Source: Gammaproteobacteria bacterium
GTDB taxonomy: Bacteria > Pseudomonadota > Gammaproteobacteria > Eutrophobiales > Eutrophobiaceae
Direction of reading: 5' to 3'
Length of the DNA: 64,000 bases
Assembly (NCBI GenBank): GCA_965221455.1
Contig: OZ244890.1
Location: forward strand, 2,142,290 to 2,206,289
Shown here: positions 30,143 to 47,516 of the stretch, in pieces
Layout of the letters: every line of letters begins with the position of its first letter
Numbering within the stretch: the first letter of the stretch is position 1
Translations under genes and position numbers: made by a program
Notes under the pieces: model-generated
The model's database searches: none
What the model saw: only the letters and a program-made list of their open reading frames with translations
Told to the model about the DNA's origin: nothing

Positions 30143-31029
30143 TGTAACCCTCCCCAAAAATAGTCTCATGCAAGATGTTGTGATTTTGTTCATACCAGAG
30201 AGAGACAGGAGAACAAAATGCAACCGAAGACATTTAGCGAAAGCCAGATATTCAAGATACTGAAAGCAGCAGAAAACGGACGTGCAGTAAAAGATTTATG
30301 CCGAGAATATGGCATGAGCGATGTGAGTTTTTATCGCTGGCGTTCCAAATATGGCGGTATGGAATTAGCTGATATCCGCCGCATGAAAGAACTGGAGAAA
30401 GAAAACAATCAGCTTAAGAAAATGTTTGCCGATTTGAGCCTGGAGAATACCGCCCTCAAAGACCTTATCGAAAAAAAGCTCTGAGTGTAGATACCAAAAG
30501 AGAAAATATTTTGTATCTTCACCAAACCCACAAGTAGAGTATTCGGCAAGCCTGTTTGGCCTTGCAGTTGAGTCGCTCAGTGTATCGTTATCAGCCCAAA
30601 CCCAGAGACGATACGCCGCTGATTGATGGGCTATTAGCACTGCTGGAACAATATCCACGTTTTGGGATTAAAAAGCTGTTCATTCTGTTGAGGAAACAAG
30701 GCCATGGCTGGAATCATAAGCGCGTGTATCGGGTTTACTGCCAATTGGGACTTAATCTGAAACGGCGCACGAAAAAACGATTGCCGGGTCGGTATCCCCA
30801 AGTACTGGCCATCCCGGCATCAGTAAATCAATGCTGGTCGATGGATTTTATGAGTGATTGTCTCTACGACGGCCGTCGATTCCGAACACTGAATATTGTC
30901 GATGACTTCAACCGAGAAGTCCTGGCCATTGAAGTTGATTTGAGTTTAACGGCTGAACGCGTGGTGCGTGTGCTGAATCGACTCAGTGAATGGCGTGGCT
31001 TACCTCAAGCGATTCGTGTTGATAATGGC
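30143..31029 (+). mobile_element. IS3-family (IS407-like) copy 1, 3'-truncated, orfB fused in frame to Rhs
   Basis: IRL TGTAACCCTCCCC; orfA 30218-30484 intact; A6G slippery site; TAG early in the orfB frame; WSMDF...RVDNG junction. Confidence 0.88.
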
Positions 31030-33432
31030 ACCACCACAACCCTGACCTACGATGCCCGCAGACGCCTGCTCACCAGAACCATCGACAGCCAAACCACCAC
31101 CTACACCTACGACGGCATCGGCAACATCACCAAAACCACCTTGCCGAACGGTTCATTCCTGACATACGAATACGATGCAGCACAACGATTGACAGCGGTA
31201 CAAGACAATCTGCGCAACCGCATCGAATACACACTGGACAAACTGGGCAACAGAACACAAGAAAATGTCAAAGACCCGAGCGGCACCCTGACGCGCACCC
31301 TGAGTCGAACCTACAACAGCCTCAATCGATTAACCAAAATCACAGGCGGAGCGAATCAAGCCACCACCTTCGCCCATGATACCCATGGCAACCCAACCAG
31401 CGTCACAGTAGATGCCATCACCACCACCAATAGCGCCGGACTCAACCAACAAACAAGCCAGGCCTATGATGCACTGAACCGAATCAGCACCAGCACCGAT
31501 GCCACCAACGGCATCACCACCTATACCTATGACGCCAGAGACAACCTGACCAGCGTCACCGATGCAAAAGGCTACATCACCCGCTATACCTACAGTGGTT
31601 TAGACGATCTGACACAACAACAAAGTCCGGACACTGGCACCACGCGCTACGGCTATGACAGCGTCGGCAACAGAACCAGCCAGATTGATGCACGGGGCAT
31701 CAGCAACACCTACAGCTACGACGCCCTGAACCGATTAACCAACATCAGCTACCCGGACAGCACCCAAAACGTGACCTACACCTATGACAGCGCAACCGGA
31801 TGTAACAAAGGCAAAGGCAGACTATGCAAAATGGCAGATGCCAGTGGCAGCACGACCTACAGCTACGATGCACGAGGCAACCTCAGTAGCCAGACCACGA
31901 CCATCGGCAGCAACATAAAGACCACCCGTTACACCTACAATGGAGCCGACCAACTGACACAAATGACCTATCCGGGAGGGCGAACAGTCGATTACACCCG
32001 TAACACACTGGGGCAAATCAGCGGCGTGACCACAAAACAAGGCAGTACAGCCAGCGTCACCATCAGCAGCAACATGACCTGGAAACCCTTCGGCCCCATG
32101 AGCGGCATGACCTATGGCAACAACCTGGTACAAAGCAAGACCTACGACCTGGACTACCGCCTGACACAAATTCTCACCACGAACGGCAGCACCCATCAAA
32201 ACCTGAGCTACACCCACAATGCCGCAGACAACATCACCCGCATTGCCGATACCGTTACAAGCAGCCGCAGTCAAACACTGGTCTATGACAAACTCAATCG
32301 ACTGACCGATGCCACCAGCCACTATGGAGATATCGACTATGCCTATGATACGATAGGCAACAGAACCAGAGAAACAAACAATACAGTCGCAGAAACCTAC
32401 AGCTACAAAATGAATAGCCATCAACTGACCCAAAAAGGGACGACGACGTACACCCATGCTGCCAATGGCAACATGACCGACAACAGCAGACACACCTTTA
32501 CCTACGGAGATAACAACCGGCTAAAACACATCAGTGTCTCTGGCAGCACCATTGCCACCCATACCTACACCTACAATGGACGCGGAGAACGTGTCAAGAA
32601 AAGCGGCAACAGCACCACCTACTACCATTACGACCCAAGCGGCCAACTCATTGCAGAAACAGATACACTGGGCAACACACAAGTGGAATACATCTACATT
32701 GATAGCCGACCGGCAGCGATAGTGAGGAATGGCACACTGCATTACATCCACCCAGACCATCTGGGGACACCGCAGAAGATAACCAATCAGACACAAGCGA
32801 CTGTATGGGAAGCGGCGTATACGCCGTTTGGTAAAGCAACGATAACCACTAGTACGATTACCAATAACCTGAGGTTCCCCGGCCAGTATTACGATGTGGA
32901 AACGAATCTTCACTACAACATGTTCCGTTATTATGACCCTACGTTAGGGCGTTACATCACTTCAGACCCAATCGGATTATTAGGTGGAATCAACACCTAT
33001 GCTTATGTAGGGCAGAATCCAATCAGGTACATTGACCCGGATGGCAGGGTGTTGGTGCCAGCCGTTACAGGTGGTGTGGGTCTTGTGGTCGGCGGTGTTA
33101 GTGGAGCGATACAGAGTGGAACTATTGGGGGAGCTTTCAAAGGTGCCATCATTGGCGGTGCTGCGGGTGCATTGGCTGGTGTGGGTTTTGCGGGATTTGT
33201 CCCTGCAACGGCGAAACTCACGGGCAGCGGTATTGGTAGCACCATCGGTGGTATTATCGGCGGTCTTCTTGGTAATGCTGTTACGGGGTCATCCATTGTT
33301 GGGGATGCCATCGGTGCACCCTTACCTGGTTCAGGTAGCCTTGACCCTACGGATGAAGTTACCCGGCAGCAATTCTGTCTGCTGAACCCTAATGCAGTCA
33401 TATGCCAAGATGAATCAACCGAATGTGAATAA
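30556..33432 (+). CDS. Transposase(OrfB)-Rhs fusion ORF, tip B1
   Basis: OrfB to RVDNG, then YD repeats, Rhs core, DPDG and a Gly-rich tip with Cys tail. Confidence 0.8.
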   Translation: MALQLSRSVYRYQPKPRDDTPLIDGLLALLEQYPRFGIKKLFILLRKQGHGWNHKRVYRVYCQLGLNLKRRTKKRLPGRYPQVLAIPASVNQCWSMDFMSDCLYDGRRFRTLNIVDDFNREVLAIEVDLSLTAERVVRVLNRLSEWRGLPQAIRVDNGTTTTLTYDARRRLLTRTIDSQTTTYTYDGIGNITKTTLPNGSFLTYEYDAAQRLTAVQDNLRNRIEYTLDKLGNRTQENVKDPSGTLTRTLSRTYNSLNRLTKITGGANQATTFAHDTHGNPTSVTVDAITTTNSAGLNQQTSQAYDALNRISTSTDATNGITTYTYDARDNLTSVTDAKGYITRYTYSGLDDLTQQQSPDTGTTRYGYDSVGNRTSQIDARGISNTYSYDALNRLTNISYPDSTQNVTYTYDSATGCNKGKGRLCKMADASGSTTYSYDARGNLSSQTTTIGSNIKTTRYTYNGADQLTQMTYPGGRTVDYTRNTLGQISGVTTKQGSTASVTISSNMTWKPFGPMSGMTYGNNLVQSKTYDLDYRLTQILTTNGSTHQNLSYTHNAADNITRIADTVTSSRSQTLVYDKLNRLTDATSHYGDIDYAYDTIGNRTRETNNTVAETYSYKMNSHQLTQKGTTTYTHAANGNMTDNSRHTFTYGDNNRLKHISVSGSTIATHTYTYNGRGERVKKSGNSTTYYHYDPSGQLIAETDTLGNTQVEYIYIDSRPAAIVRNGTLHYIHPDHLGTPQKITNQTQATVWEAAYTPFGKATITTSTITNNLRFPGQYYDVETNLHYNMFRYYDPTLGRYITSDPIGLLGGINTYAYVGQNPIRYIDPDGRVLVPAVTGGVGLVVGGVSGAIQSGTIGGAFKGAIIGGAAGALAGVGFAGFVPATAKLTGSGIGSTIGGIIGGLLGNAVTGSSIVGDAIGAPLPGSGSLDPTDEVTRQQFCLLNPNAVICQDESTECE

Positions 33433-45503: not shown

Positions 45504-47516
45504 AATCGATTAACCAAAATCACAGGCGGAGCGAATCAAGCCACCACCTTCGCCCATGATACCCATGGCAACCCAACCAGCGTCACAGTAGATGCCATCA
45601 CCACCACCAATAGCGCCGGACTCAACCAACAAACAAGCCAGGCCTATGATGCACTGAACCGAATCAGCACCAGCACCGATGCCACCAACGGCATCACCAC
45701 CTATACCTATGACGCCAGAGACAACCTGACCAGCGTCACCGATGCAAAAGGCTACATCACCCGCTATACCTACAGTGGTTTAGACGATCTGACACAACAA
45801 CAAAGTCCGGACACTGGCACCACGCGCTACGGCTATGACAGCGTCGGCAACAGAACCAGCCAGATTGATGCACGGGGCATCAGCAACACCTACAGCTACG
45901 ACGCCCTGAACCGATTAACCAACATCAGCTACCCGGACAGCACCCAAAACGTGACCTACACCTATGACAGCGCAACCGGATGTAACAAAGGCAAAGGCAG
46001 ACTATGCAAAATGGCAGATGCCAGTGGCAGCACGACCTACAGCTACGATGCACGAGGCAACCTCAGTAGCCAGACCACGACCATCGGCAGCAACATAAAG
46101 ACCACCCGTTACACCTACAATGGAGCCGACCAACTGACACAAATGACCTATCCGGGTGGGCGAACAGTCGATTACACCCGTAACACACTGGGGCAAATCA
46201 GCGGCGTGACCACAAAACAAGGCAGTACAGCCAGCGTCACCATCAGCAGCAACATGACCTGGAAACCCTTCGGTCCCATGAGCGGCATGACCTATGGCAA
46301 CAATCTGGTACAAAGCAAGACCTACGACCTGGACTACCGCCTGACACAAATCCTCACCACGAACGGCAGCACCCACCAAAACCTGAGCTACACCCACAAT
46401 GCCGCAGACAACATCACCCGTATTGCCGATACCGTTACAAGCAGCCGCAGTCAAACACTGGTCTATGACAAACTCAATCGACTGACCGATGCCACCAGCC
46501 ACTATGGAGATATCGACTATGCCTATGATACGATAGGCAACAGAACCAGAGAAACAAACAATACAGTTGCAGAAACCTACAGCTACAAAATGAATAGCCA
46601 TCAACTGACCCAAAAAGGGACGACGACGTACACCCATGCTGCCAATGGCAACATGACCGACAACAGCAGACACACCTTTACCTACGGAGATAACAACCGG
46701 CTAAAACACATCAGTGTCTCTGGCAGCACCATTGCCACCCATACCTACACCTACAATGGACGCGGAGAACGTGTTAAGAAAAGCGGCAACAGCACCACCT
46801 ACTACCATTACGACCCAAGCGGCCAACTCATTGCAGAAACAGATACACTGGGCAACACACAAGTGGAATACATCTACATCGATAGCCAACCGGCAGCGAT
46901 AGTGAGGAATGGCACACTGCATTACATCCACCCAGACCATCTGGGGACACCGCAGAAGATAACCAATCAGACACAAGCGACTGTATGGGAAGCGACGTAT
47001 ACGCCATTTGGTAAAGCAACGATTACCACTAGTACGATTACCAATAACCTGAGGTTTCCCGGCCAGTATTACGATAGTGAAACGAATCTGCACTACAACT
47101 ACTATCGATATTATGATCCAAGTTTGGGAAGATATATCACCAGTGACCGTATAGGTCTTGCTGGGGGTGCGAATACTTATAGCTATGCACTGCAAAACCC
47201 TGTCAGGTATGTTGACCCAGATGGGAGTATCCCCATACCAGTATTTACGGGATTTGCAGGGGGTCTTGGTGCCGCCATAGGCACCATATATTCTGGCGGT
47301 AGCACGGGAGAAGTTATCCGAGCTGCTGCCATCGGTGCTGTTGCGGGTTTTGGTGCGGGGTTTGGTTTGGTGCCTACTGTCACTGGCATCACCTCACCAG
47401 GGATAGTGCAGGCTATTACCGCTATCGGGGGTGGTTTGGGTGCCAATGCCCTGACAGGGCTAGACATGATTTCACAGGTCATGGGTGCGGAGCCAGAGTC
47501 AAGTGAGTGTCAGTAA
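45438..47516 (+). CDS. Truncated Rhs core with tip A2
   Basis: [13 protein letters not shown]...[14 protein letters not shown]. Confidence 0.8.

Follow-up and report, generated by a model that had tools for sequence, protein, structure and literature searches.

Two copies of a 5.67-kb repeat in an orphan Rhs array differ mainly in patches of a toxin tip and its immunity gene

The window analysed here, a stretch of 64,000 nucleotides (nt) from contig OZ244890.1 (assembly GCA_965221455.1, positions 2,142,290 to 2,206,289) of a gammaproteobacterium of the family Eutrophobiaceae, holds an island of 5′-truncated (orphan) Rhs toxin–immunity cassettes that spans ~29.0 to 57.6 kb in window coordinates. 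Within this island, a unit of 5.67 kb, comprising a truncated insertion sequence (IS), an Rhs core, a toxin tip (tip B), its immunity gene (immunity B), a spacer and the core of the next cassette, is present twice, and the two copies differ chiefly in short patches inside the tip and the immunity gene. These patches appear to be older than the sequence around them, as would be expected of a recombination mosaic. A single contig of 2,504,188 bases makes up the genome (45.6% G+C, completeness score 100%), and upstream genes for enzymes linked to pyrroloquinoline quinone and tetrahydromethanopterin suggest a methylotroph.

Anatomy and divergence of the repeat

The two copies and their parts are as follows.

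30143..35811, plus strand: copy 1 of the repeat, with truncated IS, Rhs core, tip B1, immunity B1, spacer and the core of the next cassette
41410..47075, plus strand: copy 2, at an offset of 11267 nt, or 11264 nt past a 3-nt indel
30143..31047, plus strand: truncated IS3-type element, with orfA at 30218-30484 and the 5′ part of orfB
30556..33432, plus strand: 958-amino-acid (aa) open frame, with orfB fragment, ~660 aa of Rhs core and tip B1
41778..44696, plus strand: 972-aa open frame, with orfB fragment, Rhs core and tip B2
33049..33432, plus strand: tip B1, 127 residues after DPDGR, glycine-rich and hydrophobic, ending in a Cys tail
44316-44696, plus strand: tip B2, the counterpart of B1
33392..33766, plus strand: immunity B1, 124 aa from the first ATG, overlapping the toxin stop
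44656-45030, plus strand: immunity B2, the counterpart of B1
33767..34173, no strand assigned: spacer, the remnant of a minus-strand XRE-type helix-turn-helix (HTH) gene (33777-34148)
34174..35811, plus strand: Rhs core of the next cassette, leading into tip C in copy 1 and into tip A2 in copy 2 (45438-47075)

BLASTN joined 30140-35884 to 41407-47148 at 98.17% identity over 5748 columns, and global alignment showed that the sequences up to 30142 and 41409, immediately left of the repeat start, are unrelated. Between 30143-35811 and 41410-47075, 92 of 5669 columns differ (98.4% identity), including a single 3-nt indel at 33115-33117; beyond 35811 and 47075, the copies diverge into different tips. 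The two copies have different neighbours on both sides, namely immunity A0 and immunity D1 on the left and tip C and tip A2 on the right.

The differences are far from evenly spread. The IS fragment (8/905 nt), the first Rhs core (8/1985 nt), the spacer (5/407 nt) and the second core (14/1638 nt) are almost unchanged between copies, as against 35 differences in the 262 nt of the variable part of tip B (33033-33294; 13.4%) and 22 in the 334 nt of immunity B that follow the toxin stop (6.6%); the Cys tail between these two parts (33295-33432) is identical over all 138 nt. Tip B and immunity B thus hold 57 of the 92 differences while making up only 13% of the repeat (734 of the 5669 nt; Fisher p 1.3e-28, binomial p 6e-28). 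The initial annotation of the window, made from its letters and open frames, had described a duplication of 30143-~35810 at 41410-~47075 with changes clustered in tip B and immunity B and an unchanged Cys tail; each of these points was borne out, the start to the base, and the peptide strings it quoted for B1 and B2 are correct.

Within the tip and the immunity gene, the differences are again clumped:

33045..33128 (copy 2 44312-44392), plus strand: first dense patch, covering the first predicted tip helix and its hinge; 25/84 nt differ (29.8%), including the 3-nt indel
33129..33294, plus strand: sparser part of the tip; 10/166 nt differ (6.0%)
33295..33538 (copy 2 44559-44802), plus strand: identical block of Cys tail, toxin/immunity overlap, immunity N-terminus and helix 1; 0/244 nt differ
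33539..33620 (copy 2 44803-44884), plus strand: immunity loop patch, covering the helix 1–helix 2 loop and helix 2; 14/82 nt differ (17.1%)
33621-33720: identical block; 0/100 nt differ
33721..33754 (copy 2 44985-45018), plus strand: patch at the end of immunity helix 3; 8/34 nt differ (23.5%), mostly silently

When the differences were placed at random, a run of 244 nt free of them was reached in 0 of 200,000 permutations; the patches, at 6-30% divergence, stand out from flanks that are ~99% identical. Many of the changes are runs of 2-4 adjacent bases. By the Nei–Gojobori (NG86) method, silent divergence (dS) in the variable tip was 0.25 and replacement divergence (dN) 0.098 (dN/dS 0.39), and over the whole immunity gene dS was 0.107 and dN 0.050 (dN/dS 0.47). 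The cores gave dS of 0.013 and 0.033 and the IS-derived part 0.017, such that silent divergence is raised ~19-fold over the flanking core in the tip (0.25 against 0.013) and ~8-fold in the immunity gene, with an enrichment of silent changes over the flanks in both (Fisher p 3e-10 and 6e-4, respectively). Per site, the tip has significantly fewer replacement than silent changes (p 0.012). Locally, immunity residues 49-80 reach a dN/dS of 1.2, with ~11 replacement and 3 silent changes (Fisher p 1.0), and in residues 109-124 ~5 changes are silent and 3 are replacements. No function is evident for the truncated IS or the spacer, yet both are ~99% identical between copies, and mutation after the duplication therefore cannot explain divergence of 13-30% in the patches; since silent sites are raised as much as replacement sites, the patches are best read as pieces of an older, diverged B-type allele.

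The IS fragment carries the Pfam domains HTH_Tnp_1, HTH_21, rve and rve_3, and presumably, on its domain set, belongs to the IS3 family; the island's elements of this type have an orfA with an HTH domain and an orfB with HTH_21 and the rve integrase core (30218-30484 and 55723-56538, respectively). Intact orfB genes lie at 55723-56538 and, on the minus strand, at 60337-61152. The junction between IS and Rhs core at ~31034-31047 recurs within 41410-42314 and 47887-48794 (BLASTN), and at this one junction orfB is fused in frame to the core in three copies, giving frames of 958, 972 and 910 aa; the fused frames 30556-33432, 41778-44696 and 48435-51167 thus begin in transposase sequence. The B1 frame is short of the first 14 codons of the orfB start that the B2 frame retains. 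Because the units that begin at 30143, 41410 and 47887 share the same IS/core junction, the repeat can be identified as a single unit of a tandemly amplified series with that junction as its boundary, and its right end is an ordinary core/tip border. A fuller copy of the XRE-type HTH gene of the spacer stands at 38234-38656, and a promoter scan returned 10 sites where 12.8 were expected.

The toxin tip and its immunity protein

RHS repeats, in up to 13 stretches, occur in the long open frames of the island together with the PF03527 motif and TIGR03696, the Rhs-associated core end. In 30556-33432, RHS_repeat (PF05593) matched in 13 stretches (E 3.1e-48), alongside RHS (PF03527), rve and TIGR03696 (1.1e-28). 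With their YD repeats and a core end that bears a PxxxxDPxG motif and leads into a variable tip, these proteins are Rhs/YD-repeat polymorphic toxins. Each core in the island ends with the DPxG motif, followed by a variable tip and then by a small membrane-protein gene, and DPDGR sits directly before the variable tip B.

No Pfam or NCBIfam model matched tip B above threshold. Against the glycine-zipper families of Pfam (PF13488, PF13441), the scores were 13.4 and 10.4 bits (cut-off 25) and 7.7 bits (cut-off 28.9), the best match to tip B1 being Gly-zipper_Omp at 13.4 bits. The AlphaFold2 (AF2) model of the tip is helical but of low confidence (pLDDT 49). Tips B1 and B2 differ by 14 substitutions and one deleted residue in 126 columns; the changes fall on the first predicted helix with its hinge and on a segment around residues 74-80. 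The array tips A, B, D and E align with one another (B and D at ~36% identity), and an invariant penultimate cysteine (..EC[QER], ..CD, ..CE) ends 10 of 10 aligned glycine-rich tips, two of them external; the aligned set includes 29480-29773, 33049-33432, 40652-41029, 47229-47516, 50796-51167, 51688-52038, 54496-54867, L006:5499-5798 and L012:2005-2304, where L006 and L012 are external loci. Tips B, D and E share a longer Cys-tail module (SLDP..E...QFCL.NP.A..C, then ..EC) that tip A lacks, and the module therefore does not track the immunity family. A conserved Cys is also found in helix 2 of many of the immunity proteins, which, beside the invariant Cys of the tips, raises the idea of a disulfide.

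The tip columns that vary between B1 and B2 coincide with those that vary between D1 and D2 more often than other columns do (8/14 against 19/100; one-sided p 0.004), and no such overlap was found with the columns variable between A0 and A2 (p 0.43) or between D1 and D3 (p 0.69). A sequence search of the PDB with the tip query matched a Tse5 chain over query residues 23-82 only, which are the core end, and returned no structure of a toxin/immunity pair.

Immunity B is modelled by AF2 with a pLDDT of 84 as three long helices (residues 14-42, 60-80 and 95-121), and on this model it is predicted to be a three-helix membrane protein, of a small, undescribed family. An alternative start at the ATG at 33410 fits the lengths of its relatives better. 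B1 and B2 differ at 12 of 124 residues, seven of them in the helix 1–helix 2 loop and the start of helix 2 (52-55, 58, 59, 62), three on helix 2 (70, 74, 77) and two on helix 3 (111, 119); the conserved helix 2–helix 3 loop shows no difference. Family-wide entropy at the differing positions was not significantly raised (p 0.087, 9 scorable positions), and the differing residues of helix 2 (62, 70, 74, 77) fall within a 120-degree arc, for which the chance expectation is 15%.

Immunity B is ~30% identical to immunity A and has no match in Pfam or NCBIfam. A profile built from the four A and B immunity proteins retrieved 20 proteins at E<=1e-3 among 1.84 billion representatives, 18 of them external. 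These define a family of ~105-125 aa with three membrane helices and, in the helix 2–helix 3 loop, the motif R-x-x-F-D-L-x-x-M-x-D-G-T-S-x-x-S-R-F-I-W (alignment A4); this loop is conserved, and that between helices 1 and 2 is hypervariable and rich in indels. A degenerate DNA pattern for the conserved loop found one locus in genome_contigs and nine in metagenome_contigs. The immunity gene directly follows a glycine-rich Rhs/YD tip in all four copies in the window and at 2 of the 10 external loci. At the first of these (L006, from a metagenome-assembled genome (MAG) of the Chromatiales), the upstream gene encodes a YD-repeat protein of at least 1932 aa with a homologous glycine-rich tip, and at the second (L012), a 768-aa YD-repeat frame, cut at the edge of the locus, ends in a homologous tip. 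The arrangement at these two loci shows the toxin/immunity pairing to be conserved outside the source genome. No upstream frame was obtained at L007, L008, L009, L013 and L015, and at L010, L011 and L014 the upstream frame is neither an Rhs nor a YD protein. The relatives without an upstream Rhs/YD frame at L010, L011, L008, L015 and L013 are candidate orphan immunity genes; those at L010 and L011 come after a secretion-ATPase-like gene.

Closer relatives were scarce. Among 125 other genomes of the same taxonomic family, a search for immunity A and B gave a single match (E 0.008, 32 positions, 5 stops) and no real relative; a word-based protein search with immunity B returned its own cluster only, and with the tip region it gave no score even for the query itself, probably an effect of composition; a scan of genome_contigs for close relatives gave one partial match of 45 residues in an unrelated MAG. 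The best ESM Atlas scores (0.89-0.90) were to unnamed clusters and serve as leads only, and Foldseek of the immunity model against the PDB gave a best E of 2.3. The tip/immunity family is not described in the open-access literature that we searched.

The surrounding array and the search for delivery genes

In cassette order, the array runs from A0 through a block of truncated IS, core, B1, spacer, core, C, two unrelated genes, core and D1; this is followed by a second block (truncated IS, core, B2, spacer, core, A2), a third (truncated IS, core, D2), and then E and D3. An intact IS lies 3′ of D3, with further remnants beyond it, and in the genome the island runs on to ~72 kb in window coordinates. 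It holds all 56 RHS-repeat matches and all 12 core ends of the genome. The cassettes related to B are:

29033..30104, plus strand: cassette A0, with tip 29480-29773 and immunity gene 29760-30104; paralogue of A2
47229-47516 and 47507-47848, plus strand: tip and immunity gene of cassette A2; paralogue of A0
38744..41368, plus strand: cassette D1, with immunity gene 41054-41368
48435-51512 and 52636-55199: cassettes D2 and D3, which form a mosaic trio with D1

Mosaicism is not confined to the B copies. In the D trio, D1 and D3 agree and D2 differs at 58 consecutive informative sites (40499-40714); blocks in which D2 and D3 agree follow (e.g. 40906-40945 and most of 41140-41241), and then nine sites at which D1 and D3 agree again (41260-41314). 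D3 is therefore a mosaic of D1-like and D2-like pieces in both tip and immunity gene, with a toxin head of the D1 type and, in its immunity gene, a first transmembrane helix, loop and second transmembrane helix of the D2 type. This pattern warns against treating the first tip helix and the immunity loop as a contact pair. A0 and A2, in turn, are 64-88% alike in tip and immunity gene and 98-100% alike from ~30090 into the IS fragment. Taken with the D mosaics, this contrast makes the array a graded series, from no homogenisation in A through coarse mosaicism in D to near-complete homogenisation in B, where the patches are either remnants or imports.

Other genes in and around the island belong to different families. 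Cassette C (34174-36778) carries a non-glycine tip of ~178 aa, without a family match, in a stretch of 31% G+C, and a 138-aa membrane protein is encoded downstream of it. The segment 37193-38656 encodes a 345-aa protein of no family, followed by an XRE-type HTH gene. Just upstream of the island (27582-28668) are genes for a 150-aa TIR-domain protein resembling ThsB (PF08937 in Pfam; E 1e-6) and, after it, a 209-aa membrane protein, which may be a defence gene pair. At the other end, on the minus strand, an orphan Rhs tip (56960-57637) adjoins the gene for a 680-aa protein (57967-60009) that matches the TrlF-family AAA-like ATPases of NCBIfam far below cut-off (E 5e-17) and, weakly, an NCBIfam model of an N-terminal CehA/McbA-type metallohydrolase. 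The Rhs cores (31000-33000, 34200-35800 and others) show a strong strand skew (AT skew 0.3-0.44, GC skew about -0.2), and long spurious open frames on the minus strand (223 aa, 130 aa) recur with each core.

The models for TssC, PAAR, Hcp and VgrG had no match anywhere in this genome, which also contains no full-length rhs gene. In place of an N-terminal delivery region, the part upstream of the core is the IS fragment, and the 12 core ends belong to truncated units that are not preceded by a complete rhs. With neither a full-length rhs nor a type VI secretion system (T6SS), the toxins cannot be delivered as they stand. Rhs core ends were present in 6 of 30 relatives. A congener (G005) has 26, among them a 2621-aa Rhs protein with a hydrophobic, signal-like N-terminal segment, Ig-like domains and RHS repeats, and the longest core in the window aligns to residues 1839-2498 of this protein at 37% identity. 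The TssC model had no match in any of the five Rhs-bearing relatives searched (G005, G006, G011, G017, G018), and the delivery of Rhs proteins in this lineage therefore seems, on gene content, to be T6SS-independent. Relatives of the D-type and E-type tips and immunity proteins were found in two of the five.

Origin of the patches and relation to known systems

We consider it likely that the repeat is a unit of an amplified block of orphan cassettes, that the B patches stem from short-tract recombination with an older B-type allele, and that tip B and immunity B are a pore-former and its membrane immunity protein, unarmed in their present setting. The patches would then be pieces of a diverged B-type allele assembled by short-tract homologous recombination (gene conversion), and two routes would look alike: patches may have been imported into one copy after the duplication, or may have escaped the homogenisation that affected the rest of the unit. 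In action, the tip would be freed by self-cleavage of the Rhs protein after the DPxG motif and would insert into the cytoplasmic membrane as a depolarising pore-former, by analogy with Tse5-CT, dissipating the membrane potential until neutralised within the membrane by the immunity protein. The patches probably shift the toxin specificity of each immunity protein. The selected function of the array would likely lie in its immunity genes, as protection from the toxins of neighbours, or in an addiction-like toxin/antidote effect, such as is suggested for orphans of Salmonella (PMC7043789).

The initial annotation had named patchwise recombination and positive selection as alternatives behind a putative co-evolution of toxin and immunity specificity, with the changed residues as candidate contacts; the first of these alternatives fits the clumped patches, the raised dS and the blocks of 244 and 100 nt without a difference. 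Positive selection in place would mean that point mutations arising in the tip and the immunity loop after the duplication were fixed for a new, orthogonal specificity. Such a history would account for differences that fall in the tip and in the helix 1–helix 2 loop, the most variable and indel-rich part of the immunity family, for the dN/dS of 1.2 in immunity residues 49-80 and for the overlap of the B-variable with the D1/D2-variable tip columns; we nevertheless regard it as improbable and not supported by the data, given the ~19-fold and ~8-fold rise in silent divergence, the overall dN/dS of 0.39 and 0.47, the relative rarity of replacements per site in the tip, the largely silent patch at 33721-33754, the runs of adjacent changed bases, and a loop value that depends on ~11 against 3 changes. 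Drift is a still poorer fit. If undeliverable orphan toxins were unconstrained, as the missing rhs and T6SS genes and the 14 codons missing from the B1 frame might suggest, tip and immunity gene could have decayed faster than the core; but the functionless-looking IS and spacer differ by only 0.9% and 1.2%, which puts the neutral rate at ~1% rather than 13%, identical blocks lie inside the same genes, and all frames are open with dN/dS <1, making neutral decay very unlikely.

Slimmer yet is the chance of an artefact, either strain variants of the sequenced sample merged by the assembly or a wrongly resolved repeat. Long, near-identical repeats are hard to assemble, and another B-like variant occurs at low depth in one public run (X3). 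However, the assembly consists of one 2.50-Mb contig, the left and right neighbours of the two copies differ, and in 3 of 3 public runs (two samples of one study, possibly the source data of the genome itself) we found both B1-type contigs (0 differences) and B2-type contigs (24 differences, 3 gaps) at about equal depth (28/22, 59/56 and 114/132). The two alleles are therefore not an assembly artefact. Targeted hypermutation, for example by a diversity-generating retroelement writing changes into the tip and the immunity loop, would explain why the changes are so sharply confined to short stretches of two adjacent genes, but its probability is close to nil: the plus-strand substitution spectrum has no adenine-specific pattern (31 of 54 substitutions without A, 28 of 54 without T; 32 transitions, 22 transversions), on which ground retroelement-type mutagenesis was rejected; an in-frame 3-nt indel is among the changes; and a Pfam scan of 44 open frames gave no match to a reverse-transcriptase family.

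Several points weigh against recombination with an older allele as the origin of the patches, or against the proposed activity of the pair. No donor allele for the B patches was found: the genome has no third B-type copy, the paralogous tips A, D and E match neither B variant preferentially, and neither a word search of 5.8 billion proteins nor the scan of genome_contigs gave a close B-type allele. The sole hint of another allele is a 762-nt contig in run X3 (depth 17.8), which aligns to 33189-33505 with 47 differing letters, lacks 75 nt at 33113-33189 and could represent a third B-like allele, carried by a strain that occurs alongside. The comparison involves two sequences, and the NG86 values rest on 7-16 silent changes per region; the dN/dS of 1.2 in the immunity loop leaves room for some added positive selection. 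Toxicity, pore formation, immunity function and specificity are all putative, with the likeness to Tse5-CT being one of analogy, and the tip combines a poor AF2 model with the lack of a significant match to any curated family.

A bolder extension, which we think doubtful, is that the island is a working library of immunity genes in which gene conversion shuffles tip and immunity segments into new specificities against the Sec-exported, Ig-domain Rhs toxins of congeners, with B1 and B2 as two specificities one step apart. Were that so, the 15 tip columns and 12 immunity residues would constitute a minimal recognition map between a membrane immunity protein and a glycine-rich pore-former; with full cross-protection between B1 and B2, the pair would be no more than a mosaic duplicate of a common kind. 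Little is understood of how small membrane immunity proteins recognise pore-forming toxins and block them, or of what determines their specificity, and B1 and B2, as near-identical toxin/immunity modules in one genome, are a natural experiment that could locate the determinants of specificity. More broadly, a free-living bacterium, apparently a methylotroph, can retain an all-orphan array without any delivery gene, and recombination in Rhs arrays can cut within tips and immunity genes and not just at the core/tip border.

Among bacteriocins, closely related, near-identical colicin operons studied by Riley and co-workers in the 1990s are said to differ almost only in the immunity gene and the adjoining, immunity-binding part of the toxin, and the debate over them reportedly likewise set positive selection against recombination; those pairs, by the same accounts, are plasmid-borne soluble nucleases, whereas B1 and B2 are a membrane toxin pair duplicated in tandem on a chromosome. 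Orphan rhs cassettes, for their part, were reportedly treated by Jackson in 2009.

In Enterobacteria and Snodgrassella, orphan rhs cassettes and their 'C-terminal displacement' are described (PMC5727410; PMC3967940), and the Rhs tips of bee-gut bacteria combine slow sequence change with rapid recombination (PMC5727410). The array resembles these orphans as there portrayed in its 5′-truncated cores, each with a different tip and immunity gene, in the sharp switch from conserved to variable sequence at DPxG, in its repeated cores as substrates for recombination and duplication, and in its slow point change and rapid recombination. Unlike them, it has no complete rhs at its head or elsewhere and no T6SS, its truncated IS, fused in frame to the core, belongs to the amplified unit, and recombination cuts inside the tip and the immunity gene as well as at the core/tip border.

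A proposed functional analogue is Tse5 (RhsP1)/Tsi5 of Pseudomonas aeruginosa, in which Tse5-CT forms pores in the membrane and is countered by Tsi5, itself a membrane protein (PMC9637101; PMC11630599). Both pairs join a hydrophobic, helical Rhs tip without predicted enzymatic activity to a small membrane immunity protein encoded directly downstream; the Tse5 tip acts on the cytoplasmic membrane, and pore formation by tip B is proposed by analogy with it. In contrast to the carrier of tip B, Tse5 is described there as full-length, PAAR-like and delivered through VgrG and the T6SS, and Tsi5 has two predicted membrane helices where immunity B has three. The ionophore toxins of contact-dependent growth inhibition (CDI) also have polymorphic, helical, depolarising tips with a putative glycine zipper, a cognate membrane CdiI and many allelic groups (PMC11630599); unlike tip B, they are borne on CdiA and not on Rhs, with receptor-specific entry domains, and we found no sequence relation to them.

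A parallel to the mosaics themselves is offered by the esaG and tipC loci of type VII secretion systems (T7SS), where strings of non-identical immunity paralogues recombine at conserved blocks to give mosaics, gains and losses (PMC9484751). Those systems are Gram-positive with soluble immunity proteins, and little evidence of such recombination is reported for the membrane immunity gene tsaI (PMC9484751); in the present array, mosaicism affects the toxin tip as well as the membrane-type immunity gene paired with it. Set against these systems, the array is of a known kind in its Rhs orphan array with core recombination (PMC5727410), in its pairing of pore-forming-type tips with membrane immunity as in Tse5/Tsi5, and in its recombining tandem immunity paralogues (PMC9484751). 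What is new is an un-annotated tip/immunity family, an all-orphan array in a genome without an rhs head gene or T6SS, recombination breakpoints inside tip and immunity genes, and a minimal allelic pair within one genome.

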